Positions 7,073 through 64,000 of a stretch of DNA of 64,000 bases are shown one piece after another. The DNA is from Candidatus Pelethousia sp. (GTDB lineage: Bacteria; Bacillota; Clostridia; Christensenellales; CAG-138): positions 17,622-81,621 of the forward strand of contig JAYFPE010000005.1 in NCBI GenBank assembly GCA_034928145.1. Reading direction: 5' to 3'. The notes beneath the pieces were generated by a model, which ran no database searches, was not told the origin of the DNA, and was given only the letters and a program-made list of their open reading frames with translations. The position numbers and the translations under genes are program-made. How positions within the stretch are numbered: position 1 is the first letter of the stretch; each line of letters begins with the position of its first letter.

Positions 7073-7101
7073 AGTATATGCAAATCAAACAATAATGTCA
7101 A
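7073..7101 (-). promoter_or_regulatory. Sigma-A-like promoter abutting the XRE start codon
   Basis: On the minus strand: TTGACA (7101-7096), a 17-nt spacer, TATACT (7078-7073), then GCA and the ATG. There is no SD. Confidence 0.4.
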
Positions 7102-7307
7102 GTTTGTCTTCCGGTTTTAATAAATCATCTCAACTATTTTCAATATGAGCGGACATATCTTCGTTTGAAAATACGCCCGCTCATTATGCCTGTTTTCCGT
7201 ATTCAGTTGTTTACGGTGGTTCAAATCCCTCCAGTACGCCGAAAATGGCCGATGTCATCTGTGAAATTGAGGGGTGAAAAATCGAGGGTGAAAACCCCTG
7301 AAAAGGC

Positions 7308-7339
7308 AGATGCCATGCGGCTTTGACCGCATGGCATCT
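7308..7339 (-). terminator. Terminator hairpin downstream of tRNA-Leu
   Basis: Perfect 13-bp inverted repeat AGATGCCATGCGG/CCGCATGGCATCT with a 6-nt loop. A short U tract follows on the minus strand. Confidence 0.6.
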
Positions 7340-7356
7340 ATATACACCTAAAATTT

Positions 7357-7439
7357 TGGTGCGGCTGATGGGACTTGAACCCATATGGTTTCCCGGCAGA
7401 TTTTAAGTCTGCTGTGTATGCCGATTCCACCACAGCCGC
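7357..7439 (-). tRNA. tRNA-Leu (anticodon UAA), CCA encoded
   Basis: Reverse complement is GCGGCTGTGGTGGAATCGGCATACACAGCAGACTTAAAATCTGCCGGGAAACCATATGGGTTCAAGTCCCATCAGCCGCACCA. It has a 7-bp acceptor stem, anticodon loop CTTAAAA, a long variable arm and a TTCAAGT T-loop. Confidence 0.9.
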
Positions 7440-10188: not shown

Positions 10189-11631
10189 TTAGTAAGCCCG
10201 GCCGAAATACATCAGATGCTTGGCCTTTTTATCGCAGAAGATGCAGTTATCTCCATGGGCCTCCGCATCGTAATCCAGGGTATAGCAGCGGGTAGACGCG
10301 CCGGTGATGGCTTTGATCTCATCCTCACACTCCCGCTCACCGCACCAGGGCGCGCGGGCAAAGCCCGTTTTCACAGCCTCCATGAACGCGCCGAAATCCC
10401 GCACATCCCGCGTACGTTCCTCGCGGATCGCCAGCGCCTTGTTGAACATGCTCCGATGGATGTCATCCAGCAATTGCTTGATGGTATCCGCCAAGCCCTC
10501 CAGCGAAACGAAGAGCTTTTCGTGGGTATCCCGCCGCACCAGCACGGCCTGGCCCTTTTCGATATCCTTGGGCCCGAGCTCAACGCGCACGGGCACGCCC
10601 TTCATTTCCCATTGGTTGAACTTCCAGCCCGCGCTCTGCTCGCTGTCATCCAGCTTCATGCGGATGCCCGCGGCCTTGAGGCTGCGGAAGACTTCGTCGG
10701 CCTTATCCATCACGCCCTCCTTGTGGGTTGCGATGGGCACGATCACGGCCTGATAAGGCGCGATGCGGGGAGGTAGCACCAAGCCGCGGTCATCGCCGTG
10801 CACCATGATCACGCCGCCGATCATGCGGGTGGAGGTGCCCCAACTGGTGGTGTGGCAGTATTCCTGGCGGCCTTCTTTGCTTAGGTACATAATTTCGTAG
10901 CTCTTGGCAAAATTCTGCGCCATGTTGTGCGAGGTGCCCATTTGCAGTGCTTTGCCATCCTGCATCATGGCCTCCATGGTATAGGTGGCATACGCGCCGG
11001 CGAACTTTTCCTTTTCGCTCTTGCGGCCCGTGAGCACGGGGATAGCCAGCACGTTCTCGGCAAAGTCCTTATAGACGCCCAGCATGCGCATGGTCTCCTC
11101 CTGGGCCTCATCGAAGGTGGCGTGAGCCGTGTGGCCCTCCTGCCAGAGGAACTCTGCCGTGCGCAGGAAGGGACGGGTGCTCTTTTCCCAGCGCATCACG
11201 TTGCACCACTGATTCATCAGCATGGGCAGATCGCGGTAGGACTGGATCCACTTAGCGTACATGGTGCCGATAATGGTTTCGCTGGTGGGGCGGATGGCCA
11301 GGCGCTCCGTGAGGGTTTCGGTGCCGCCCTGTGTAACCCAGGCCACCTCCGGCGCGAAGCCTTCGACATGTTCGGCCTCCCGCATAAGCATGCTCTCGGG
11401 AATCAGCAGGGGGAAATAGGCGTTCACATGCCCCGTATCCTTAAAGCGCTGGTCCATCTGCGCCTGCATCAGCTCCCAGATGGCGTAGCCATAGGGCTTG
11501 ATGACCATGCAGCCTCGGACTTCGCTGTAATCCGACATATCGGTTTTAATAACCACATCGGTATACCATTGGGCGAAATCCTCGCTGCGACTGGCGATGT
11601 GCTGTACGAATTCCTCGTTGTTCTTTGCCAT
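10189..11631 (-). CDS. proS: Proline--tRNA ligase (archaeal/eukaryote-like type, about 480 aa)
   Basis: N-terminus is FAQWYTDVVIKTDMSDYSEVRGCMVIKPYGYAIWE. Class II motifs and a C-terminal zinc-type tail (CIFCDKKAKHLMYFGRAY) are present. Confidence 0.93.
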   Translation of the reverse strand: MAKNNEEFVQHIASRSEDFAQWYTDVVIKTDMSDYSEVRGCMVIKPYGYAIWELMQAQMDQRFKDTGHVNAYFPLLIPESMLMREAEHVEGFAPEVAWVTQGGTETLTERLAIRPTSETIIGTMYAKWIQSYRDLPMLMNQWCNVMRWEKSTRPFLRTAEFLWQEGHTAHATFDEAQEETMRMLGVYKDFAENVLAIPVLTGRKSEKEKFAGAYATYTMEAMMQDGKALQMGTSHNMAQNFAKSYEIMYLSKEGRQEYCHTTSWGTSTRMIGGVIMVHGDDRGLVLPPRIAPYQAVIVPIATHKEGVMDKADEVFRSLKAAGIRMKLDDSEQSAGWKFNQWEMKGVPVRVELGPKDIEKGQAVLVRRDTHEKLFVSLEGLADTIKQLLDDIHRSMFNKALAIREERTRDVRDFGAFMEAVKTGFARAPWCGERECEDEIKAITGASTRCYTLDYDAEAHGDNCIFCDKKAKHLMYFGRAY

Positions 11632-11702
11632 GCTCCGTTTCGTTCCTCCAAGCTAAATAAATGCAATATCAAAAAACACTATAGCATCCGGCCAGGGCCT
11701 TG

Positions 11703-12707
11703 TCAAATGCCCCGGAGGATGTCGTCGATGATGTCGTCCAGGCCGCCGGGCACGCTCATAGCGGGCGCAGCCGCGGACTCCACGGGCGCGGCGGAAAGGA
11801 TATCGCTCACGGAATACACCCGCTCCTCTGCGGGCGCTTTTGCAGGCGCGGGCCCATCCAGCGCGCTGACCAATTCCACCAAGAGCGCGTCCGCATCCAA
11901 CTCGGATTCCATACGGACCACCGGTGCGGCGTCGATCTGCGGCTCAGGCTGGGGACCCGCCTGGGAATTCGGTTCCGGTTCCGGTTCCGGCTTCGGCTCC
12001 GGCTCGCATAGGGGCGCTTCCTCGGACTCTTCGCCGGGGAGCGAGCGGCCCTGCAAGGCATAGATATTCTGCATCAGCGCCTGGGGGGAGTTATAATCCT
12101 CCGGCAGCGCCACCGCCTCCACCTTGGCCGTACCCGCGCTGGAATTGCCGATATCCAGCACAAAGGAGCCAAAGGCCGCGGCCTGCTGCCGGGCCTCTTC
12201 CGCAGCCTGGCGCAGGCGCTCCTTTAGGCCGGCCGCCTTTTGCTCGGCCTCTGCCACATAGGCATCCGCCTGGGCTATGCGCTGGGCCGCCTTCTGTTCC
12301 GCCTCTTGGCGGGTCTGCGCCGCCTGCTCCTGTGCTTCGGCGCGCAACTGGGCCGCTTGGCTTTCCGCCTGGGCCCGGATCTGCCCGGCCTCCTGCCTGG
12401 CCGCCTGGATGGTCTCCTCGGCTTCCCTTTGGGCCGCGTCCCGCTCCGAATAAGCGTTGCCCACGACCTGGGTCTTGTAGGCGTCCGCCTCTTCGCGGAT
12501 GCGGGCTGCGGCGCGCTGGGCTTCCGTTAGGGCGTTGATGATGGCCTCGCCCCGGGAGCGGTAGTCTGTTACCTCAGCCTGCAACTGAGCCTCCCTGCCC
12601 ATGAGCTCCTCTACCCGCTTCGTCAGAACGGCAATCTCCGCCTCACGCTGGGCAACGGCGTTCTCCCGCTGCGCCAGCATTGCCTGCAATTCTTTCTTCC
12701 CTGCCAT
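11703..12707 (-). CDS. Ala/Glu/Gln-rich coiled-coil protein with a (PE)n tract
   Basis: Long heptad-like AEAQ/REAE repeats, then the PEPKPEPEPEPEPN tract. No family assigned. Confidence 0.5.
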   Translation of the reverse strand: MAGKKELQAMLAQRENAVAQREAEIAVLTKRVEELMGREAQLQAEVTDYRSRGEAIINALTEAQRAAARIREEADAYKTQVVGNAYSERDAAQREAEETIQAARQEAGQIRAQAESQAAQLRAEAQEQAAQTRQEAEQKAAQRIAQADAYVAEAEQKAAGLKERLRQAAEEARQQAAAFGSFVLDIGNSSAGTAKVEAVALPEDYNSPQALMQNIYALQGRSLPGEESEEAPLCEPEPKPEPEPEPNSQAGPQPEPQIDAAPVVRMESELDADALLVELVSALDGPAPAKAPAEERVYSVSDILSAAPVESAAAPAMSVPGGLDDIIDDILRGI

Positions 12708-12769
12708 AAATGCAATTTCCTTCCCCTGAATTCTATATGATGGATGTGGATATTGTTCCTTGCCTTCGC

Positions 12770-13828
12770 TTATATATCCAGCCGCTGTTGCTGCGAATCC
12801 GCCGGGGCGGCCTCCGCCGGGGCGGCCTCCGCCGGGGGCGGTGCGTAACCCATATGCGCATAGCCCGCGGGCAGCACGATGCGGCCCCTGGGCGTGCGGG
12901 CGATCAGCCCTAACTGCAAAAGGTACGGCTCGTAAACATCCTCGATGGTGGTGGCATCCTCGCCGGTGGCGGCGGCGATGGTATCAAGGCCTACAGGTCT
13001 GCCGCCGAATTTCTCGATCATGGTGAGCAGCATGCGTCTATCCACCTTGTCGAGCCCCAGCTCATCGATGGCCAGCATCTCAAGGCCCGCCCGGGCGGAC
13101 GAAAGGTCGATGCTGCCGTTGCCGCGCACCTGGGCATAATCCCGTACCCTCTTCAAAAGCCGGTTGACGATGCGGGGCGTGCCTCGGGATCGGCCCGCGA
13201 TCTCCAGCGCAGCCTCCCTATCGATTTCGATATGCAGAATGTCCGCGCTGCGGCGGATGATCTCTTGCAAATCCTCCGGGGCGTAAAGCTCTAGCTGTTC
13301 CTTGATGCCGAAGCGATCCCGCAAGGGTGAAGTGAGCAAACCCATGCGGGTGGTGGCCCCGATCAGGGTGAAGCGGGGCAGATCCAGCCGGATGGAATGG
13401 GCGCTGGGGCCTTTGCCGATGATGATATCCAGCGCGTAATCCTCCATCGCCGGATAGAGCACTTCCTCCACGCTGGCGTTGAGGCGGTGAATTTCGTCGA
13501 TGAAGAGGATATCCCCGGGCGCGAGGTTGGTCAAAATGGCTGCCAAATCGCCCGCGTGGCTGATGGCGGGGCCGCTGGTGACCCGCAGGCTCCCGCCCAT
13601 CTCATTGGCCACGATGGCGGCCAGGGTGGTTTTACCCAAGCCCGGCGGGCCGTAAAAGAGGGCGTGATCCAGCGACTCGGCCCTGTGCTTGGCGGCCTCG
13701 ATATAGATGCGCATGTGTTCCTTCACATGGTGCTGGCCGATATACTCGTTTAAAAAGCGGGGTCTGAGGCTATATTCGGTTTGTTCATCCTCCAACATCA
13801 TGGAGGAGGTGATGAGCCGTTCGTCCAT
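12770..13828 (-). CDS. ruvB: Holliday junction branch migration ATPase RuvB
   Basis: Walker [16 protein letters not shown], and a RuvB C-terminal winged helix. An extra Pro/Ala-rich tail is present. Confidence 0.95.
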
Positions 13829-15079: not shown

Positions 15080-15691
15080 TTATCCCTCGATGCCCTCCAA
15101 GTAAATGTTGATGTCCTCCAGGCTATCGAAGGGCAGACCCTCGGCGCATTCCGCAGCCGCATCGGCGGGCAGATCTACATCCAGGGTCAGCAACACCTCC
15201 ACGGCTAGCTTTTCATTCGTTTTGCGCACGGTGAGGATTTCGTTTTCCAGCCAAAGCACATAATGCTCGGGACAGAAGCTGTCCGATGTGAGGCGCAGGG
15301 TCACCGCCTCGGGGCTGAAAGCTTCCACCGCTTCCGCCCCGTAGGCTTCCTCCAGCTCCAGCCTGGTCTTGCCGATAACGGGCTGCGCGTCCGTCAGCTC
15401 TACGATGTGGCCGCAGGCCATTTGGTAGCGCCAGGTTACAACCGCATCCGGCGATACGGTTTTACTGTCCCTTTTGGCCACCTCCGCTGCGCCTGCGGGC
15501 TGCTCCGCAGCCTCTATTGGATCGGTCTGCGTAGCCTCCGGGGGCAGAGCGGCCTCCGTCGGGGATTCTATGTTCACCCGTTCCCTGCTTCCAAAGCTGT
15601 AGCCTCCGGCCGCGCCCAGCAGCAACATGGCGCAGCAGAGCATCAGCGCCGTGGAGGCGCGCAAAACGCCAGAGGGATACAATCCGTTCAT
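15080..15691 (-). CDS. N-terminally anchored hypothetical protein (possibly BofC-like C-terminal domain)
   Basis: A single TM helix followed by a soluble domain. The BofC-like assignment is only an impression. Confidence 0.4.
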   Translation of the reverse strand: MNGLYPSGVLRASTALMLCCAMLLLGAAGGYSFGSRERVNIESPTEAALPPEATQTDPIEAAEQPAGAAEVAKRDSKTVSPDAVVTWRYQMACGHIVELTDAQPVIGKTRLELEEAYGAEAVEAFSPEAVTLRLTSDSFCPEHYVLWLENEILTVRKTNEKLAVEVLLTLDVDLPADAAAECAEGLPFDSLEDINIYLEGIEG

Positions 15692-54658: not shown

Positions 54659-55673
54659 GGTAAGCCTCCTCCTGGTAATTTACACCGTGCATTTCAAGGT
54701 AGCGCTTCATCTTTTCGACCACCGCGTCGTTCTCCGGCAGTTGCACCAAGGTGTAACCCACCATTTTGCCGTCGATGGTCTTGGTATCGGCAAAGAGGAT
54801 GTTCACGGGCGCGCCGCACTCAAGTACCATGCTGGTGATAACGGGGCTTGATGTCTTGGTGCCGTCGAAGATGATGCGCAGGCATCTCTCGCCCATCATC
54901 TCCTCGCCCAGGCGGCCGCTGGCGTAAAGCAGGCGCTTGGCGATCTCCGTTTGGGGCCGCATGAAGATATCCTCCACGCTGCCGATCTCGGCGATACGGC
55001 TGTTGTCGATAATGGCCACGCGGGAGCAGATCTCCTCGATCACGCTCATCTCGTGGGTGATCACCACGATGGTGATGCCCAGCTTCTGGTTGATCTCCCG
55101 CAAAAGGTCGAGGATGGAGCGCGTGGTGGTGGGGTCCAGGGCGCTGGTGGCCTCGTCACACAGGAGCACCTTGGGGTTGGCCGCCAGGGCCCTGGCGATG
55201 GCAACCCGCTGCTTTTGCCCGCCGCTGAGCTGGGCCGGATAGGCCTTTTCCTTATCCGTAAGCTCCACGATGGAGAGTAGCTCCCGCGCCCGCTTAACAG
55301 CGTCCGCCTTGGATACGCCCGCGATCTCCAGCGGGAAGCAGATGTTTTGCAGAGCCGTTTTCTGCATCAGCAGGTTAAACTGCTGGAAGATCATGCCCAT
55401 GTTGCGCCGGGCTGCCAGTAGCTCGCCCTCAGCCAGAAATTCCAGCGGCTGGCCGGCAATGACCACGCTGCCCTCGGTGGGCTTTTCCAAATAGTTCATG
55501 CAGCGCACCAGCGTGCTCTTGCCTGCGCCGGAGAGGCCGATGATGCCAAATATCTCCCCCTCGTAAATGGTCAGATCGATCCCGGAAAGGGCGGTGACCG
55601 CCGTATCCCCCGAGCCAAAGGTTTTATTCAACCCCCGGATGGTGATGATCTCGTTCCTGCTTGCCGCATTCAT
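54651..55673 (-). CDS. metN: Methionine ABC transporter ATP-binding protein with NIL domain
   Basis: GLSGAGKST, LSGGQKQRVAIARAL, LLCDEATSALD and a C-terminal NIL domain. The start is moved to MNAASRNE, after an AAGGAGG SD. Confidence 0.92.
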   Translation of the reverse strand: MNAASRNEIITIRGLNKTFGSGDTAVTALSGIDLTIYEGEIFGIIGLSGAGKSTLVRCMNYLEKPTEGSVVIAGQPLEFLAEGELLAARRNMGMIFQQFNLLMQKTALQNICFPLEIAGVSKADAVKRARELLSIVELTDKEKAYPAQLSGGQKQRVAIARALAANPKVLLCDEATSALDPTTTRSILDLLREINQKLGITIVVITHEMSVIEEICSRVAIIDNSRIAEIGSVEDIFMRPQTEIAKRLLYASGRLGEEMMGERCLRIIFDGTKTSSPVITSMVLECGAPVNILFADTKTIDGKMVGYTLVQLPENDAVVEKMKRYLEMHGVNYQEEAYHV

Positions 55674-55718
55674 GCGCCCGGTATACCTCCTTGAACCAAC
55701 TCGTATGATATCACACAT

Positions 55719-55751
55719 AAAAAGGGCCGTGAGCGTATACGCTCACGGCCC
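55719..55751 (-). terminator. Strong terminator inside the metN leader (candidate attenuator)
   Basis: On the minus strand: GGGCCGUGAGCG-UAUA-CGCUCACGGCCC (12 bp) followed by UUUUU, about 45 nt upstream of the metN ATG. Confidence 0.7.
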
Positions 55752-55770
55752 GGCTATATCCAAACTATGG

Positions 55771-55866
55771 CTATGCCAGCACCCATGGACGCACACGCTC
55801 TCCATGCCCGAAGGACATGGAGCCACACATCATCATGCCGCACATAGCCATGGCGAAATTCTTCAT
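55771..55866 (-). CDS. 31-codon Met/Cys-rich leader ORF upstream of metNIQ
   Basis: AAGGAG lies 8 nt before the ATG. The translation is MKNFAMAMCGMMMCGSMSFGHGERVRPWVLA, with 7 Met including an AUG-AUG-AUG run and 2 Cys. It lies between the promoter and the terminator. Confidence 0.5.
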   Translation of the reverse strand: MKNFAMAMCGMMMCGSMSFGHGERVRPWVLA

Positions 55867-55930
55867 AATGCTTGCTCCTTTCCTCCGTTCATAAGCGCTT
55901 AGCGCCCGCCGAAAAATCTTATTGCAATGT

Positions 55931-55959
55931 ATGATACCATGGCTGCCCTATCATGTCAA
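55931..55959 (-). promoter_or_regulatory. Sigma-A promoter of the met leader
   Basis: On the minus strand: TTGACA (55959-55954), a 17-nt spacer and TATCAT (55936-55931). Confidence 0.6.
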
Positions 55960-56000
55960 CCACAAAATATATATTTTCACTTTTGCCTATTCGGCTCTTT

Positions 56001-56153
56001 TCAGCCCTGGCCCTTATACTTGCGATAGGTAGCCATGCCGCCCCGGATATGCCGCTCCTCCTTGTTGCGCTTGAGGATCTGCCCCACGGCCAGCGCCCGG
56101 CAGGTGTCTAGCCCCGTCAGGCGCTCGGTCATATCCTTATGTAAGGTTGTCAT
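56001..56153 (-). pseudogene. spoIIID: 3' fragment of spoIIID (stage III sporulation regulator), interrupted by the mobile element
   Basis: The translation MTTLHKDMTERLTGLDTCRALAVGQILKRNKEERHIRGGMATYRKYKGQG aligns without gaps to the C-terminal half of B. subtilis SpoIIID (..STVHKDLTERLPEINPDLANEVKEILDYHKSIRHLRGGEATKLKYK..). An in-frame TAG lies at 56157-56159, and the N-terminal HTH part is absent. Confidence 0.8.
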
Positions 56154-57630
56154 TAACTAGAACGGTTTCATTCAGGCCTAAATCTCCCAGCAATCGCAGG
56201 TAAATGTCCACATTTCCGTCCTTATCCACCTCGATCTTCTGGATGATCTGCCTTAACTGGGCGTTGGTCATATCCCGTACTGATACAATATCCTCAATGG
56301 TTGAAAACGTGCGCCGAATGATGGTTTCAAGCTGGTCGCCCTTGTTGATGTTGTATTCCACCAGCTTAAGCTCGTTTTCCAGCCGCGCGATTTCTTCTTT
56401 TGACCCTCCGATTTTATCGTTTAGTTCTTGGCGGGTAATAAGGTCATCCGCATACATATCCATGTATTTTTGGCGGTTTCGGCTCAGCTTCGATAGCCTG
56501 TCCCTTAGTTCCTTTTCGTAATGCTCATTATCATGCTTGGCTTTATAAATGCGGGTGAATTCCTGTGTGACATTGCGTATCACCTTGCCTTTTTCCCGCA
56601 ATAGCTCCTTAAAATAAGCTTCTAAGGCTTCGATCAGCTCATCCTCATCCACTGTTACCGCATTGGGGCAGTTATCCGCGCCTTTGCCGTTATGGGAGGA
56701 ACAGACCCACCGCACATAGGTGTTTTTATAGGTTCGCACGGTACGGCGAAAAGACCAGCCGCACTCCTTGCATTTGATTAAGGTAGAAAACAGGTGTTTG
56801 TTGCTTTGGCGCTCTTTATTCACCTTGAACATCATTCCCCTGTTTCCCATGATCTCCTGCGCCTTATCGAATAGCTCTGGCTCGATGATACGCAAATCCG
56901 GCCGGTCGGCCACCATCCATTCCGCTTCATCCTTTTGTGCGCGCTGCCCGGTAAGGAAGTCCGTTACCTCCTGCTTTCCGTTGATGATCTTCCCCGTATA
57001 AAGCTCATTGGTCAGGATGCGGCAGGTGGCATTCTGGCTCCATTGGCAGTTTCGCTTTGTTTTGTACCCGCGCTCATTGAGCATGTTGGCGATCTTCGCG
57101 GCCCCATACCCCTCTTGGATGTACCATTGATAAATCTGCCGGATAACCGCCGCTTCCTCTTGATTGATCGCCAAGTTGAAATAATCCCCAATGGTCTTAT
57201 CGTAGCCATAGACGATATTAGGGACACGGCCCTTTTCCGCATTCATTTTCTTTCCAAACTTTACACGCTTAGAGGTATTGGCGCTTTCTTCTTGTGCCAA
57301 GGCCCCAAATATGGTCAGTACGAATTCCGAATTTCCCAATACGGTCATATTGGCCGTTAGGAACGTGGTTTCCACCCCTAGGGACTTTAGCTCCCGTATG
57401 CTCTGTAAAAAGTCCACCGTATTACGGGCAAAGCGGGAGATATCCTTCACCACCACCATATCGAAAATACCCTGCCGGGCATCCTGCATAAGCCGCAAGA
57501 ACTCCTTACGGTTCTTTATCTTCGTGCCGGATATTCCTTCGTCACGTTGTGTCAAGTAGGGACGTAAAAAAATATGAAACCTTTTTGGGGAATCTCTCTT
57601 AGCGTGTCGATTTTCTGCAAAACAAAGCAA
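56137..57630 (-). pseudogene. Large serine recombinase lacking the N-terminal catalytic-serine segment
   Basis: Homology starts at DEGISGTK (about 57540) and runs through VVVKDISRFARNT, the recombinase domain, a zinc ribbon (CKECG...C) and a coiled coil. The first roughly 30 codons (TTG start) do not resemble the YxRxSxxxQ catalytic motif. Confidence 0.75.
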
Positions 57631-57700
57631 AGAGGGCTGCCGTTCACAGGATAATGCCTGCGGACAGCTACCCCCTTTACCTTATCTTCTTGGCAGGTTT

Positions 57701-59293
57701 TTATTTCTGCCCATGTCCTTCTCCTTGGCCACGAAACGTCCAGTCGATATGAATGGACCTGTCATTGTAAACGTAGATGCAATCTACAAAATCAACTACC
57801 ATCTGCCGAGTAAGGGTATCTGCCTTCAAATATTGTAGGAGCTTTGGTTCTCCCTGTTTGGCAGCAGCAAGTTTGGCTTGCAGCTCGGCAAGCTCGGCTT
57901 CCAATCGGTTTGTCTGCCGCTCCATATCAGCCTGCTCCCGTGACAGCTTTTCACGCTGGTGCCGGTATTGCTCCCTGCTGATTTTTTCTTCTGCCATGGC
58001 ATCGTATAGTTCTGCTTTCTGTTCGGAAATTCCATTGCACGAGGATTGATAGACAGCTATTTGCTTCTGTTGCTTGGCCATGCGGTCATTGCTCCCAGCT
58101 TTTATCAAAAGGTCTTTTTCGTCCAATAAAACCTTGATGTAAATGTGGATGGCGGACAGGACAACGCCTGCGATTTCATCTTCCTTGATGTTACCTTTCA
58201 TACAGCCCAAGCCCGAGGTCTTGCTTTTTGTGTTGCAGAAAAATTGGGGAGTGGGAGTAGGTCGGCGGGACATGGCATGGCGGCAATGCCCACAGCGTAT
58301 TTTTTCGGTCAATAAATGAACACCGAACGGCACAGACTCCTTTTCTATAAACGGAGCCAAATTGTCCTGTGCCGCCTGAAATTCCTCTGTTGTCACAAGG
58401 GGTTCGTGTTTTTGTTCTACAACAATCCAGTCTGATTTATTGTTTTTCAGTGTCGTTTGATTTCCCACTTGTGGGCGGTATCGCTTGCCATAGATCACAG
58501 CGCCCAAATATCGTTCATCCCGCAGAATCCGTGTTATCATGGCATGATCCCAAAGGTCAGTACCTTCCACGCCGATCCACCATTTATGATGATGGCCCTG
58601 CTGATTTTTTATTTTGCTGGCAGTGGGTACTTTCTCCGAGTTAAACAGACGGGTAATCTCCAGTGTGGACATTCCCATTCCAGCTAACCGGAAGATACGC
58701 TGTACAATCCCGGCACTGTCCTCATCAACGACAAGCTGGTTTTTATTTTTCTTATCCTTGCGGTATCCGATGGGTGCAAAAGGGCTTAGATAATCCCCTT
58801 TGAGCGCCTTCGTTCGCTTGCCGCTTTTTACTTTCAGGGATAAGTCCTTGCTGTAATAGCCGTAAATCACGTTGCGAAAGGCAATGTCCACGCCACTGGT
58901 CTTTCCCTTCATCTTTGCACTGTCGTAGCCGTCGTTAACAGAAATAAATCGGATGCCTAAAAAGGGGAAAATCTGATCCACATAGTCGCTGACCGTGATG
59001 TAATCCCTGCCGAACCGTGAAAAGTCCTTGACAATGATGCAATCAAATTCCTTTGCCTTGGCTTTCTGTAAAAGCCTCTGCATATCAGGGCGCTGCATAT
59101 TGGTTCCCGAAAACCCGTCATCGCACAGCTCTATGATTTCACTGCCCCGAAATTCCGGGCAGCTTTCCACATAACGGCGGAGCAGCTCCCGCTGGTTAGT
59201 AACGCTGTTGCTTTCATCCTTGACCCCATCCCGGCTGTCCTCGTCCTCCACGGAAAGCCGGATATACAAAACGATAACATAGCTTTTATCCAT
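57701..59293 (-). CDS. Large serine recombinase (intact)
   Basis: VLYIRLSVEDED...SNSVTNQ catalytic motif, DDGFSGTN and IVKDFSRFGRDY. Its ATG overlaps the stop of the upstream recombinase gene. Confidence 0.9.
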   Translation of the reverse strand: MDKSYVIVLYIRLSVEDEDSRDGVKDESNSVTNQRELLRRYVESCPEFRGSEIIELCDDGFSGTNMQRPDMQRLLQKAKAKEFDCIIVKDFSRFGRDYITVSDYVDQIFPFLGIRFISVNDGYDSAKMKGKTSGVDIAFRNVIYGYYSKDLSLKVKSGKRTKALKGDYLSPFAPIGYRKDKKNKNQLVVDEDSAGIVQRIFRLAGMGMSTLEITRLFNSEKVPTASKIKNQQGHHHKWWIGVEGTDLWDHAMITRILRDERYLGAVIYGKRYRPQVGNQTTLKNNKSDWIVVEQKHEPLVTTEEFQAAQDNLAPFIEKESVPFGVHLLTEKIRCGHCRHAMSRRPTPTPQFFCNTKSKTSGLGCMKGNIKEDEIAGVVLSAIHIYIKVLLDEKDLLIKAGSNDRMAKQQKQIAVYQSSCNGISEQKAELYDAMAEEKISREQYRHQREKLSREQADMERQTNRLEAELAELQAKLAAAKQGEPKLLQYLKADTLTRQMVVDFVDCIYVYNDRSIHIDWTFRGQGEGHGQK

Positions 59294-60995
59294 TGACCGC
59301 CACCTCCATTGGGAACAACAGACACTCTTGCAGATGTCTGTATTCATCTTCAAAACGGAGATGTACCGTAACAGCGGTCTTGCTGTGGACAATCACATGA
59401 TCTACCAGTTCGAGAACCATCTTCCTTGTCAGCGCCGGTTCCTCATGGAAGGTCAGGAGCGTTCGCAACCATGGATTTTCCTCTGTTCGTGTTTCTGTGA
59501 CCGTCTGCTCCTGTGCCATAAGCTCATTCAAAAGGGCGGTCAACTCTGCCTCCTGTTCTTTATAGCGGTTTTGCGCATAAAGATAATCTCTTTCGTCCAT
59601 CAGACGGTCTAAGTAATCATCACAAAGACTTTCTCTCAGACGAGTAATCCGGTCAAGCTGCTCCTTCGTCTGATTGATATGGCGTCTGATTTTCTGCTTT
59701 TGGGAGAGAACGGCGTTCTGATTCGCCGCACTCCTGATGAGCTTTTCCATATCCAAAGCCATCATAAGCTGGGCCTGAATCACGCTGAAAACCGATTCTA
59801 AGAGGTCTGTCTCGGGTATGCTGATAAAGGAACACCGGTCGGTATCTGTGGCATGGACAGGACAAATATAGCTGTACCAAACGTGGAATTTCGGTTTTTT
59901 ATTTTTATTTTCCCGCACGTTTTTATAACGTACAAGACCCGTTTTGCAGCCACCGCAGCAGACAAGTCCTTTCAGGAGGTTTTCCGTGTTTACAACCTCT
60001 GCAAACCGGGCCTGCTTCTCGTAATACTCTCTTGTTACCTGCTCATTAAGCTGCTGTACGCTATCAAAAGTATCTTGGTCAATGATGGCCTCATGCGTGT
60101 TTTTTACAACAACCCACTGTTCTTTTGGTATTTGGGTCTGGCTCTGTCCTTTCCAAAGCGCCTCCTGTTTTCTGCCCTGTACCATATATCCCAAATAGAC
60201 CTCGTTGGACAGCATGGATTTAATGGCCGGTATTTTCCATACCGCATTGGCAAAGCGTTTGTCCTTTACCAGTCCTTTTTCAAAACGGTAACGGCTGGGG
60301 GATGGAATATCCCGCCGATTCAGTTCCCATGCGATGTTCTGATAGCTCATTCCCGAAAGCCGCCAGTGGAAAATATCACGAACAGTGGGGGCGGTATCAT
60401 CGTCCACAATCAGGCGATGCTTATCTTCCGGGTCTTTTAAGTAGCCATAAGCCGCCCATGCACCGATAAATTCGCCTCGTTCCTGCTTGCCACGCAGGAC
60501 AGGACAGATTTTTTGAGAGATGTCACGGGCATACACATCATTCACAAGATTTTTCAGGTTTATGGTAAGGCTGTCAAGGGTGGATGGATCAAGGCTGTCG
60601 TAACCATCGTTTACAGCGATGAAGCGCACTCCCATGAACGGGAATATCTTTTCCAAATATTCTCCGGCCTCAATGTAGTTTCTGCCGAAACGGGAAAGGT
60701 CTTTGACAATGACGCAATCCACATTGCCCATTCGTATATCATCCAAAAGGCGTTCAAAATCATCCCGTGCGAAGTTGACCCCTGTTTCCCCATTATCCGA
60801 GTAGACCGAATAGAGGGACAGGCTTGGGTCGCCCGCAATATAAGCACGGAGTATGGCTTCCTGATTTTCAATGGAATCACTGTTTTCACGATGTCCGTTC
60901 AGTACGGAAAGCCGCACATAGGCACCCGCTTTGTAGACCCTTCGCTTTGTTTCCTGCGGTATGGGAGCCTGTCTGAATTTACTTTTTCTTGCCAT
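59286..60995 (-). CDS. Large serine recombinase (intact)
   Basis: AYVRLSVLNG...SDSIENQ, DNGETGVN and IVKDLSRFGRNY. Its start lies 1 nt after the upstream stop. Confidence 0.9.
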   Translation of the reverse strand: MARKSKFRQAPIPQETKRRVYKAGAYVRLSVLNGHRENSDSIENQEAILRAYIAGDPSLSLYSVYSDNGETGVNFARDDFERLLDDIRMGNVDCVIVKDLSRFGRNYIEAGEYLEKIFPFMGVRFIAVNDGYDSLDPSTLDSLTINLKNLVNDVYARDISQKICPVLRGKQERGEFIGAWAAYGYLKDPEDKHRLIVDDDTAPTVRDIFHWRLSGMSYQNIAWELNRRDIPSPSRYRFEKGLVKDKRFANAVWKIPAIKSMLSNEVYLGYMVQGRKQEALWKGQSQTQIPKEQWVVVKNTHEAIIDQDTFDSVQQLNEQVTREYYEKQARFAEVVNTENLLKGLVCCGGCKTGLVRYKNVRENKNKKPKFHVWYSYICPVHATDTDRCSFISIPETDLLESVFSVIQAQLMMALDMEKLIRSAANQNAVLSQKQKIRRHINQTKEQLDRITRLRESLCDDYLDRLMDERDYLYAQNRYKEQEAELTALLNELMAQEQTVTETRTEENPWLRTLLTFHEEPALTRKMVLELVDHVIVHSKTAVTVHLRFEDEYRHLQECLLFPMEVAVNG

Positions 60996-60996
60996 G

Positions 60997-62664
60997 CTAT
61001 ACCACCTCCCTGTTGGAAGATGACTCTGGCACAATGCGTTCCACGCACTGAATCAAGGCCAGCGTATTTTCATATTCACACCGAAATTTGAAATGAATAT
61101 GAATACGCTGGTTTTCGTACACAGAAATTCGGTCAATTAGCTCAACCGCCAGCCTGCGGTTTAATGTTTCAATATCCTGGTGCTGTTTGAAGTAGGCGAT
61201 CCACTGCTGTTCCTCGGATTTCCCCTCCACAAGACGGTCGATTTCCTGATTCAGTGACAGGATGGCATCCTCGGCTTCTTTCACTTTATGGTCGTACCGC
61301 TTGCCAAATGCGATATAGTCCTCACGGGTGATGATGCCGTCTGTATAATCCTCATGGAGCTTCATCCGGTAACGCCGATATTTCTCCACCTCGGCTTGCT
61401 TGGCGTTCAGCCTTTCATCCGTCTTTTTGACCTGCCTACTGGTATAAGGTAATTTTGCAATATCGGCAAGGGTCTGTTCTATATCAAGAATGAAACGGAT
61501 ATGCTGCTGAACCGCAGCAAACACAGCCTCCGCAAGCAATTCATCACGGATACTGTGGCTTTTACATCCGCTTTTTTCCTTGCTGCCGGAACAGATATAA
61601 TAGTAATAGGGATTACTGGCGGTGGAATTATTCTTGCGAACCATGCTCCGTCCGCAATCGGCACAGTAAAGCAGTCCGGCAAGCGGAAAAAGAGTCTCCT
61701 CGCCGGGAGCCGTGCGGGTATCGGAACGCAGAATTTTTGCGGCATTCTCAAAGGTATCCCTGCTCACAATCGGCTCATGGGTGTTTTCCGTGACTGCCCA
61801 TTGCTCCTGCGGAACCGCAAACTGCTTTTTCACCTTGTAGTTGGGACTGCTGCGTTTTCCCTGTTCCAATATACCAATGTACAGAGGATTCTTGAGGATA
61901 CGCAAAACGGTAACTGCCGTCCATTGCGCTTTTGGATTTCTCTTGAATGGTGATTTATAGTTGCTGCCTATCAGCCGTTTGTACTCTAATGGAGAGGGGA
62001 TATCACGCTTGTTCGTGTATTCGGCAATCGCCTGTGCGGAATATCCATTCAAGAACAGTTTGAATATATCCTGCACCACACCGGCCGCAAACTCATCAAC
62101 CATCAGGCGGTGCTTATCCTCCGGGGCTTTCAGATAACCGAAGGCGGCAAAGGGAGCGATAAACTGCCCCTTTCTGCGCTTGATTTCAAGCTGACTACGG
62201 ATTTTAATGGAAATATCCCGGCAGTACGCATCGTTCATCAGGTTTTTGACAGGTACAATCAAATTGTCCGATGCCGTTTTCGGTTTGGCGCTGTCATAAT
62301 CATCGTTGATGGAAATGAAACGCACACCCATAAAAGGGAATATTTTTTCAATGTATTTTCCCGTTTCGATAAAATTTCTGCCAAGGCGGGAAAAGTCCTT
62401 CACAATAATACAGTTGATTTCCTTGTTTTTGACTGACTCCATCATTTCGATAAAATCAGGACGGTCAAAATTGACCCCGGTATAGCCATCGTCTATCCGC
62501 ACTTTATGCAGAGTGATTTCGGGGTGGGACTCCAAAAAGGCGGAAATTAAATCCCGCTGGTTTGCGATACTGTCGCTTTCGGATTTGTTTACATCCTCTT
62601 TATCACCGTCCTCACGGGATAGCCGGAGGTACATATCCGCATAATAAGTGGTTTTTATATTCAT
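60997..62664 (-). CDS. Large serine recombinase (intact)
   Basis: MYLRLSREDGD...SDSIANQ, DDGYTGVN and IVKDFSRLGRNF. Confidence 0.9.
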   Translation of the reverse strand: MNIKTTYYADMYLRLSREDGDKEDVNKSESDSIANQRDLISAFLESHPEITLHKVRIDDGYTGVNFDRPDFIEMMESVKNKEINCIIVKDFSRLGRNFIETGKYIEKIFPFMGVRFISINDDYDSAKPKTASDNLIVPVKNLMNDAYCRDISIKIRSQLEIKRRKGQFIAPFAAFGYLKAPEDKHRLMVDEFAAGVVQDIFKLFLNGYSAQAIAEYTNKRDIPSPLEYKRLIGSNYKSPFKRNPKAQWTAVTVLRILKNPLYIGILEQGKRSSPNYKVKKQFAVPQEQWAVTENTHEPIVSRDTFENAAKILRSDTRTAPGEETLFPLAGLLYCADCGRSMVRKNNSTASNPYYYYICSGSKEKSGCKSHSIRDELLAEAVFAAVQQHIRFILDIEQTLADIAKLPYTSRQVKKTDERLNAKQAEVEKYRRYRMKLHEDYTDGIITREDYIAFGKRYDHKVKEAEDAILSLNQEIDRLVEGKSEEQQWIAYFKQHQDIETLNRRLAVELIDRISVYENQRIHIHFKFRCEYENTLALIQCVERIVPESSSNREVV

Positions 62665-62852
62665 TCGGTGTTCTCCTAATCGTTTCTGAATTTCAGAAAA
62701 TCAATCGGGAGTTTTACCGCAAGTCCTATACCGCAGGGGGCTTACCCAAACCTCCTGCGGATTTGTGACTCAGCTTACCACAAAACTCCCTTCGCGTCCA
62801 GACAGTTTTGCCACTGTCAGACACATGACAAATATCGTTCATCATCTTTTCC

Positions 62853-63116
62853 TCACAAGGTTTGTAAATAGTGTTCCATCCGCTGTTCAAAGGTCACTCC
62901 GTTTGCGGCAAAACCCACACTGACGGCAACCTTGCCCACACGGAAGCAATAAGGGTTCCTGATTTCTCTCATAAACTCTTTTTGGCGTCCCTCTTTGGGA
63001 AGGCTCCTGTCAATTTCAATTTCTCTTATATCTACAAGCGTTGCCGGATCGACCGTCCGAACATCCACCTGACGTAATTTTTCCAAATTCATCTGTGTTA
63101 CATCAAATTTCTCCAT
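62853..63116 (-). CDS. Small conserved element-associated hypothetical protein
   Basis: 87-aa ORF upstream of the recombinase array. No function recognised. Confidence 0.45.
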   Translation of the reverse strand: MEKFDVTQMNLEKLRQVDVRTVDPATLVDIREIEIDRSLPKEGRQKEFMREIRNPYCFRVGKVAVSVGFAANGVTFEQRMEHYLQTL

Positions 63117-63190
63117 GGCCGCCCTCCTTGTTTTCTCTTATCATCTATATGAAAATTGCTGATTGTCCTATGCCCGAAAAAGGGCGCCAC

Positions 63191-64000
63191 TCATTCAAAG
63201 TAGGCGCCCGTCTTCTTGTCCGCAATAAATCGGCTCACATCAGAAATCTGGTGCGTAACAGGCATATCAGGCAAGGCCGCCAGTATGTCATTCCGATAGC
63301 GTCTGCTTGCCCGACTGTCAAGGATAGAAAAAACACAGGTATCCGTTTCTCTGCGGATTCCCCGGCCGATCCACTGGCGCAGTTTAATCAGCATACCCGG
63401 CACGATGACTTTGTTCAGATAGCCGTAGAAGTCAGGGTACAGGGTCTTTTCATATTCCAGCACCGGGTCGGGAGCCGGGAACGGCAGCCGTACTACAATG
63501 AGGGAAGATAGAATGTCCCCGGCAAGGTCAATGCCCTCCCCGGCACTGTCGCTGGCACAGAGGACACCGTTGCCGCTTTTACGAAAAGCGTCGATGGCGT
63601 CAAGACGGCCTTTCCCCATGCGAAACAGAGGAAATGAAGTGATTCGCCTGCACAGCTCGTCATATACCTGTTCCATCATGCGGTAGGAGGTAAACAGAAT
63701 CAGGGTATGCCCATGGGTCGCTTCAATCAGAGCCGCCAGCCGATTGACCACCGTCTGAAAATAGTCGCTGTCTTTGTCTGAAGGCAGCGGCATATCCTGC
63801 GGCAGATACAACAGGGCATGGTTTGGATAATCAAAGGGAGAAGCCTTGCTGGTTTCAAAGATGCGGCGTTTCTCCGCCAATGTAATTCCGCTATTTCGCT
63901 TGAAATGTGAAAAATCGCCTCCCACAGAAAGCGTACCGGAGGTCAGGATATATGGAATTTCTTCCTGCCAAATATCCTCCGACAGTAGGTAATCAAGCTG
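63191..64000 (-). CDS. DinG/Rad3-like helicase, C-terminal part (gene continues past the right edge)
   Basis: The frame stays open to position 64000 (..ILTSGTLSVGGDF..). Helicase_C_2 pattern: GEGIDLAGDILSSLIVVRLPFPAPDP and RQWIGRGIRRETD. Confidence 0.75.
   Translation of the reverse strand, partial: QLDYLLSEDIWQEEIPYILTSGTLSVGGDFSHFKRNSGITLAEKRRIFETSKASPFDYPNHALLYLPQDMPLPSDKDSDYFQTVVNRLAALIEATHGHTLILFTSYRMMEQVYDELCRRITSFPLFRMGKGRLDAIDAFRKSGNGVLCASDSAGEGIDLAGDILSSLIVVRLPFPAPDPVLEYEKTLYPDFYGYLNKVIVPGMLIKLRQWIGRGIRRETDTCVFSILDSRASRRYRNDILAALPDMPVTHQISDVSRFIADKKTGAYFE

Follow-up and report, generated by a model that had tools for sequence, protein, structure and literature searches.

A conjugative element with three serine recombinases that very probably interrupts the recombinase gene of a spoIIID-splitting element

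Mobile elements that land in the genes of other mobile elements have been described before. Streptococcal integrative and conjugative elements (ICEs) can carry serine-integrase triplets at an element end and insert inside genes, including the traG gene of other elements (PMC4701971), and the landing of mobilisable elements in the genes of conjugative elements has been reviewed (PMC5704250). In the searchable literature, we found no triplet clade that has a fixed, conserved codon of large serine recombinase (LSR) genes as its regular target, and no sporulation-gene intervening element whose own recombinase is interrupted. Here, we analyse a 64,000-nt stretch of DNA from Candidatus Pelethousia sp. 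(contig JAYFPE010000005.1; hereafter the window, in whose numbering positions are given) that appears to hold both arrangements. The locus very probably consists of two nested mobile elements: a conjugative element with a recombinase triplet (the inner element) sits inside the LSR gene of an element that splits spoIIID (the outer element), at the aspartate codon of a DEGISG motif.

The interrupted gene is contained in the open reading frame (ORF) 56137-57630 on the minus strand. An earlier note on this DNA had described an ORF with all LSR blocks from DEGISGT onward in which the some 35-45 residues that should carry the catalytic serine are replaced, and both points are borne out. The Recombinase (PF07508, E 1.1e-24) and Zn_ribbon_recom (PF13408, E 1.7e-13) domains are complete, and the Resolvase match (PF00239) starts only at residue 29 of the ORF, which aligns with profile position 38 of 145. 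In the three neighbouring recombinases (Rec1, Rec2, and Rec3) this match begins at profile position 1-3, and in an intact allele of the outer LSR at position 1. Used as a query, the retained part returned thousands of homologues, of which the closest (P0001) is 98% identical and 511 aa long. All six full-length homologues that were aligned (511 aa) open with MNIAAYCRVSTDK...(V/I)(R/K)(I/L)YA, followed by DEGISGT. The alignment places the breakpoint exactly after residue 42, at DEGISGT: the window protein is without exactly 42 N-terminal residues, including the nucleophile Ser10 (YCRVS), and has the unrelated sequence MLCFAENRHAKRDSPKRFHIFLRPYLTQR in their place. By its sequence, it lacks the catalytic-serine motif (YxRxS) expected of a competent large serine recombinase and is not predicted to be one. 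The earlier note had also allowed that full-length homologues might share the odd N-terminus; MLCFAENRHAKRDSPKRFHIFLRPYLTQR precedes DEGISGT in none of the six. The DNA encoding it is 100% identical in seven other contigs, and because it there lies ahead of different genes, this pseudo-N-terminus is part of the neighbouring element rather than of the recombinase. It is best read as the last 87 nt of the inner element (57544-57630, minus strand) translated in frame from a TTG start, a spurious extension according to the ORF list and the junction and homologue alignments. The outer gene itself, codons 43-511 plus the stop, then occupies 56137-57543 on the minus strand and begins with the junction codon GAC (57541-57543), the first one retained.

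An uninterrupted counterpart exists at the same host site. The P0001 gene lies on contig L011, where the spoIIID 3' fragment comes directly after an intact 511-aa LSR gene, with the same intergenic region and then metN beyond it. The order matches that of the window, but L011 has no three-recombinase module upstream of the LSR. From DEGISGT on, the two proteins are 98% identical. Identity between the two DNAs starts exactly at GACGAAGG, the GAC codon, and they are alignable from GACGAAGGAATATCC onward; upstream of the breakpoint, L011 reads ...CGCATCTATGCG and the window ...TTGACACAACGT. The 1,410 shared bases are 92.7% identical and contain no frameshift or stop, with 88 codons differing only synonymously and 10 non-synonymously, for a ratio of non-synonymous to synonymous differences (pN/pS) of 0.036. 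The window thus contains an undecayed copy of the gene, cut at a single point.

The DNA immediately upstream of the TTG seems unfavourable to expression of what remains. The TTG lies 71 nt, and the GAC (57543-57541) 157 nt, from the stop codon of Rec3 (57701-57703), and a stem-loop with a U-rich tract, terminator-like in form, occupies ~57619-57688 (minus strand), 3' of Rec3 and inside the inner element. It folds at -44.9 kcal/mol (z = -6.4 relative to shuffles, with 0 of 200 shuffles folding as well), so the nearby stop and hairpin that had been noted, the former at about 150 nt, are both real; a simple terminator scan left the hairpin unflagged. No promoter-like site or ribosome-binding site was found ahead of the TTG. 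These features bear on the suggestion that the truncated recombinase is made from the element-provided TTG and, though catalytically dead, binds DNA and serves as a decoy for the outer attachment sites or represses them. The TTG is in frame and used by public gene callers, and the coding sequence has been under strong past purifying selection. Against this, the hairpin stands directly upstream, neither a promoter-like site nor a ribosome-binding site precedes the TTG, the low pN/pS is explained equally well by a recent insertion, and the frame fusion arises automatically, since the crossover codon is fixed. We regard such a protein as very unlikely.

The nesting itself is most clearly seen by following the triplet into other contigs. 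The triplet (57701-62664, minus strand) comprises three adjacent, co-oriented LSR genes, all with complete catalytic domains. Rec3, the outermost (57701-59293, with the longest ORF reaching 59392; 530 aa in public gene calls), matches Resolvase 1-144, Recombinase, and the zinc ribbon and has the nucleophile motif YIRLSVED. Rec2, in the middle (59286-60995, ORF to 61034; 569 aa in public gene calls), is assigned by Pfam and has the motif YVRLSV. Rec1, the innermost (60997-62664; 555 aa), is likewise assigned by Pfam and carries DUF4368; the exact protein occurs in 40 public-collection blocks. Nine contigs (L001-L009) are 99.4-99.95% identical to window positions 57400-64000, and a tenth, shorter one is 98.9% identical. 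In every contig that extends past Rec3 (8/8), a fourth recombinase gene comes next, drawn from four families other than the window's. Alignment of the eight junctions gives 100% identity from the end of Rec3 through ...CCCTACTTGACACAACGTGA (...TTGACACAACGTGA), ending at GA, the element end lying 157 nt past the stop of the third gene. Past ...TTGACACAACGT the sequences diverge, with a residual likeness only of the GAYGANGG type. The four other target LSRs begin at D-[DE]-G-x-[ST]-G codons, each at Resolvase profile position 39, and their retained parts start with DEGISGTSLARRDEF (L001-L004), DEGISGASAEKRPDF (L005 and L009), DDGYTGTNFDRPAF (L006), and DEGITGTKKEKRPEL (L008), compared with DEGISGTKIKNRKEF in the window. 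The last stretch of shared DNA, TTTTTTTACGTCCCTACTTGACACAACGT (57544-57572, minus strand), is 100% conserved in L001-L009 and is a putative recombinase-binding half-site of the right attachment site (attR).

On this comparison, the sequence to the right of 57543 reads as inner element, and its >99.4% identity over at least five target genes and several samples implies recent mobility. The composition agrees: GC content is ~0.58-0.62 in the host flank, ~0.49-0.50 in the outer recombinase gene, and 0.45-0.50 in the triplet region, so the elements are of foreign composition relative to the host. The same data speak to the possibility that the four recombinases form one module of a single spoIIID-splitting element, the fourth having lost its 5' end by deletion or decay. 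The four genes are indeed adjacent and co-oriented, and in some relatives the triplet is followed by a fourth gene that is small, degenerate, and resolvase-like. Yet the fourth gene is wholly different among contigs whose triplets are >99% identical, L011 has the fourth gene intact at this host site but no triplet, and the 511-aa family stands alone beside spoIIID in 5/5 contexts shown (95 blocks). Furthermore, ten different genes are broken at one and the same codon, and the truncated gene is undecayed (pN/pS 0.036). A single element is already contradicted by these observations and is scarcely credible. An assembly chimera was also considered as the cause of the junctions and rejected, since the targets share only a degenerate motif of ~17 nt at the DNA level and the same architecture is found in the window, in several independent assemblies, and in a complete replicon.

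Choice of the same kind of target extends beyond close copies of the inner element. A Rec1 scan of viral-collection contigs recovered related triplets, and in five of them (L056, L057, L058, L059, and L065) Rec1 is 46-66% identical to the window's. In these five, the terminal arm follows the pattern TTTTTTTA-N-GTCC-N4-5-TTGACA(C)-N5-6-GA, after which comes the D-D-G motif (DDG[IYF]SG) of another LSR gene. The retained target starts with DDGISGTRFDRPGF in L056, DDGFSGSNFERPEF in L058, DDGISGTTFNRPGF in L059, and DDGFSGANFQRPKF in L065; in L057 only a remnant of nine codons, DDGYSGTNF, is left. Altogether, ten distinct LSR genes are cut at the same codon by an identical or related element end. 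The target in L065 is the first recombinase of a second triplet, which places one triplet element inside another.

Several features of these and further loci can be recorded alongside. The order in L065 (10001-19900) and in L080 is Rec1-3, Rec1' from residue 58, Rec2', and Rec3'. The cargo of the inner L065 element resembles, as judged by eye, BREX-type defence genes, and a walk along this locus added 7.7 kb of BREX-like cargo and reached no junction. Contig L063 (~7100-7364; Rec1 37% identical) has a similar arm that adjoins a subtilisin-like protease gene (…DDNGHGTHVSG), and among more distant triplets no LSR was found after the third gene. A small extra resolvase-like gene follows the third recombinase in L055 (14840-15310), L056 (~11330-11790), L061 (~12640-12960), and L129 (24950-25345). 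At the nucleophile position, it has YCRVA (Ser to Ala) in L055 and L056 and IYCCTV in L061. The inner element of the window is without this gene.

Both ends of an insertion can be read in Vescimonas fastidiosa MM35. A protein search of a plasmid collection identified its complete replicon pMM35_01 (NZ_AP023416.1), which carries a triplet with Rec1 40% identical to the window's. DUF6870 comes first here, with three recombinases and a small resolvase-like gene after it; next is the arm TTTTTTTAGTCCCTACTTGACACAAGAAGAT, followed by ATGAGCCGATTCGGG... reading MSRFGRDYLQVGMY.... The right-hand target, /MSRFGRDY... (the slash marking the cut), is an LSR without its catalytic domain in which Recombinase, Zn-ribbon, and DUF4368 are present. 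About 55 kb leftward, a hidden Markov model (HMM) of the LSR N-terminus detects a lone fragment, ...ALYERLSQED...DDGYSGTNFNRPGF...KRVIVKD, that matches Resolvase 2-72. The left junction reads GTCATCGTAAAGGAT/TATTGTGCGATAATAGGACTAAA, and unrelated sequence follows the KRVIVKD fragment. The two halves, at ~606,186 and ~661,167 and in the same orientation, rejoin in frame as VIVKD-MSRFGRDY, a canonical LSR motif. They share a 3-bp core, GAT, and the two arms form an imperfect inverted repeat (TTTAGTCC...CACAA). Genes for VirD4, VirB6, VirB4, PrgI, topoisomerase III, ArdA, and a relaxase lie between the junctions. This relative, a conjugative element of about 55 kb, splits an LSR gene conservatively, with both halves kept. 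Next to the right-hand end (L129 25438-27720, corresponding to NZ_AP023416.1 661170-663452), the split, TndX-like recombinase and a barstar gene adjoin an intact-looking, oppositely oriented spoIIID.

The V. fastidiosa arm shares the TTTTTTTA-GTCC-...-TTGACA(C) pattern with the window, L056-L059, and L065. By spacing from TTGACAC, the V. fastidiosa core corresponds to the GAC at 57543-57541 of the window, and because of the GAT core in this relative, the crossover is placed, probably, within the GA of that codon. The earlier proposal that a second element, with three recombinases reading outward at its end, had entered the outer LSR gene at its 5' end is thus supported from four sides: the intact L011 allele, the four other LSR targets, the relatives, and V. 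fastidiosa.

We lean, though not strongly, towards a broader reading as well. The triplet clade may use the LSR motif D-[DE]-G-x-[ST]-G (K-D-x-S-R-F-G-R in a sister lineage) as its attachment site and may be made up of specialised parasites of mobile elements, which would land only where a prophage, a mobilisable element, or a gene-intervening element is resident, disable its recombinase, and tie its excision to their own. Here, this would produce a three-layer nest of spoIIID, outer element, and inner element that has to be undone in order.

A number of observations weigh against the nested arrangement or its wider interpretation. The window ends inside the inner element and shows no left junction for it, and the 5' LSR fragment could have been deleted. 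Most junctions were taken from metagenome assemblies, and the searches yielded a left junction for none of the elements that target the DEG motif. Both ends are seen only in a more distant relative, which cuts another LSR motif (KD/MSRFGR) that lies ~45 codons further along its own target, some 34 positions beyond the DEG site on the Pfam profile. No excision product and no recombinase expression is evident in the sequence data analysed. Finally, in L055 (Rec1 80% identical), the identical arm TTTTTTTACGTCCCTACTTGACACAA is followed by non-LSR sequence (15450-15520), so either target specificity is not absolute or this contig is in another state. It may represent a secondary site, an excised or joined form, or a rearrangement; an attP was also considered, and the sequence after the arm is neither LSR-like nor symmetric. 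Further beyond the arm, non-recombinase sequence leads to phage-type DNA polymerase and primase genes.

The left end of the inner element was sought in several ways. The reverse complement of the terminal arm (with up to 7 mismatches) gave nothing, a regular-expression search matched right ends only, and the HMM of LSR N-terminal fragments, run over all loci, found none before V. fastidiosa. A degenerate left-end pattern returned only 120 chance matches in viral contigs. When positions 57400-64000 were compared with plasmid and phage sequences by megablast, nothing matched. Walking leftward through the element was no more productive: a scan of the genome collection for the cargo methyl-accepting chemotaxis protein (MCP) found a single 4.6-kb contig of a metagenome-assembled genome (MAG), a metagenome scan, together with a homologue search using a 127-aa ORF, returned unrelated elements and fragments, and one look-up matched only the chromosomal ancestor of the cargo. 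MCP-anchored look-ups covered 19.5 kb upstream of Rec1 and met no element end.

A sequence of events can be proposed for the nested arrangement. The outer element would integrate into spoIIID, its 511-aa LSR gene at the element end reading into the 3' part of spoIIID. The inner element would then integrate by conservative, site-specific recombination at the aspartate codon of the D-E-G-I-S-G motif of the outer LSR, the triplet recombinases presumably recognising this motif as attB. Integration would part the promoter, the start, and the first 42 codons, with the catalytic serine, from the remainder of the gene by tens of kb. The missing 5' fragment is expected at the far end of the inner element, past 64000, as ~126 nt on the minus strand that would encode MNIAAYCRVSTDK...VRIYA and end ...TATGCGGA. 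The far arm should resemble the reverse complement of TTTACGTCCC....CACAA, that is, ...TTGTG...GGGACGTAAA, and the circular inner element would join as ...CACAACGT-GA-....

Because the promoter and 42 codons would be tens of kb away, behind a terminator-like hairpin and with no promoter-like site nearer, the outer recombinase should not be made for as long as the inner element is in place. In that state, the outer element could not excise and spoIIID would stay split; its rebuilding would need precise prior excision of the inner element. It is also conceivable that the nest is real but irreversible, with the inner element or the displaced 5' fragment damaged, spoIIID permanently split, and the host either asporogenous or using another copy. 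There is no evidence of excision and no second spoIIID in the window, and the nine-codon remnant in L057 indicates that such nests do decay. On the other side, Rec1-3 are intact with their nucleophile motifs present, the truncated LSR and the spoIIID fragment are undecayed, and the near-identity of the inner element over at least five target genes (>99.4%, several samples) points to recent mobility. In addition, a conjugative transposon in the skin element of Clostridioides difficile left skin excision and sporulation intact, though the recombinase gene is uninterrupted there (PMC3158075). We consider a permanent block less likely than not, but a serious alternative to a nest that would be undone in order.

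The identity of the outer element rests on its junction with spoIIID. The spoIIID 3' fragment (56013-56150, minus strand) runs from about residue 35 (...TTLHKDMTERL...) to the C-terminus, matches positions 34-80 of 82 of the Pfam SpoIIID profile (E 1.5e-15), and aligns in tblastn with residues 35-80 of Bacillus subtilis SpoIIID. It marks the host side of the outer element's junction. In the window as in L011 and L081-L085, the LSR gene ends in a stop codon that overlaps this fragment. P0012, of the 511-aa LSR family, is found in 95 blocks of the collection, and what follows it in each of the five contexts shown is a piece of spoIIID starting at residue ~35. Its host neighbourhood differs from the window's (UDG, MatE, and guaA, with phage-type YqaJ and RecT upstream), so the family lies beside spoIIID in at least two host neighbourhoods. 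The outer element appears to belong to a widespread, prophage-like family that splits spoIIID. A search of the window, and of 10 kb of upstream sequence in related loci, found no 5' part of spoIIID. In those portions of two sources that bear on the subject, spoIIID is not among the interrupted genes named for intervening elements (PMC5595907, PMC4191935). Many database versions of the 511-aa recombinase are longer (540-770 aa), their frame continuing past the usual C-terminus (P0026, P0078), and some of these match unrelated, host-type Pfam domains (DUF362, YaaC, and polysaccharide synthase). Such sequence may reflect joining of the recombinase frame to host DNA where members of the wider family have inserted into other targets.

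The inner element runs off the window at 64000, and its transfer genes are known from other copies that lie outside it. In all copies, the genes upstream of the triplet encode a DUF6870 protein, a 753-aa helicase, and a small sigma-70-like protein. The window holds the first of these as a conserved partner directly upstream of the triplet (62853-63116, minus strand; Pfam DUF6870 in gene calls), together with the C-terminal part of the DEAD/Helicase_C_2 helicase (63191-64000, minus strand; Pfam Helicase_C_2), whose full gene is present in L001-L010. DUF6870 followed by the LSR triplet, or by its genes up to the contig edge, recurs in nearly all of 41 viral-collection loci. Further upstream the cargo of the copies is variable and includes a GGDEF-EAL protein, chemoreceptors, CheW, and insertion sequence elements. 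The L053 copy has NikA-like, relaxase (PF03432), ParA, and HTH_36 replication-type genes, and the L127 copy TraG/VirB4-like ATPase, TraC-like, and C39-like peptidase genes. Because other copies carry these relaxase, NikA-like, and ParA or TraG/VirB4-like and TraC-like genes, the inner element is taken, from its predicted gene content, to be a conjugative element of at least 25 kb (tens of kb). A 'Candidatus Pelethousia' MAG contains one copy, and a Christensenellaceae MAG contains a related fragment. The cargo pair of chemoreceptor and GGDEF-EAL genes (L002 471-5688) has a ~80% identical chromosomal counterpart in many contigs (L070-L079, 10001-15188), where it adjoins mreBCD and a penicillin-binding-protein gene. 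This suggests, on sequence likeness, that the pair was captured from a host chromosome.

On the host side of the locus, a near-consensus sigma-70-type promoter match (55931-55959, minus strand; TTGACA, 17 nt, TATCAT, with an upstream TG) lies just 3' of the spoIIID stop codon, ahead of a short ORF and metNIQ. The ~230-nt leader matched no Rfam family, and an Rfam search of 55500-58000 gave zero matches.

If LSR genes are indeed the landing site of this clade, several consequences follow. Frequent composite elements of Clostridia with 'extra' or 'broken' serine recombinases would be explained, and such composites could be delimited by a simple rule, the break at Resolvase profile position 39. 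The clade would exemplify conflict between elements, in which one mobile element disarms the excision enzyme of another, and would offer natural recombinases for a degenerate, protein-constrained DNA site. Sporulation in this genome may depend on two successive excisions. With the outer element, the sporulation genes known to be split by intervening elements would also come to include spoIIID, which encodes a master regulator of the mother cell.

Each layer of the locus has a described counterpart. The outer element resembles skin (sigK), SPbeta (spsM), vfbin, and gin (gerE) in apparently splitting the gene of a mother-cell sporulation regulator (PMC4191935, PMC5595907, PMC5025042). It shares with such skin-like elements an LSR gene beside the junction and, in its family, phage-like genes (YqaJ and RecT). 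It differs from them in its target, spoIIID, and in that its own recombinase gene is interrupted.

The inner element is closest in layout to the streptococcal triplet ICEs (Ambroset et al. 2016, PMC4701971). Common to both are three co-oriented LSR genes, side by side at one end of a conjugative element, and site-specific integration within a gene, which is disrupted and which in one case (traG) comes from another mobile element. The streptococcal elements have very short flanking repeats (2-8 bp); in the V. fastidiosa relative, the shared core is GAT. Their targets, however, are mutT, traG, and hsdM rather than recombinase genes. The present clade, by contrast, is found in Clostridia-type contigs, has DUF6870 and a helicase gene ahead of the triplet, and cuts LSR genes at a conserved motif of the catalytic domain.

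Nesting as such is also known. Tn6104 (in traG) and integrative and mobilisable elements (IMEs) that enter maff2, SNF2, or oriT likewise use a conserved gene of another mobile element as a landing site and generate nested or composite structures (PMC5704250, PMC3158075). These hit conjugation genes, whereas the inner element hits an enzyme of integration and excision and so should block excision, not transfer. A parallel to the nest itself is Tn7740 and its IME (PMC12271512), where the serine recombinase gene of one integrated element is occupied by a conjugative element that encodes a serine recombinase of its own, and both travel together. As described, that case is a single historical event in one lineage for which no target motif, triplet, fixed codon, or range of unrelated LSR targets is reported, unlike the recurrent insertion at one LSR codon seen here in ten distinct genes.

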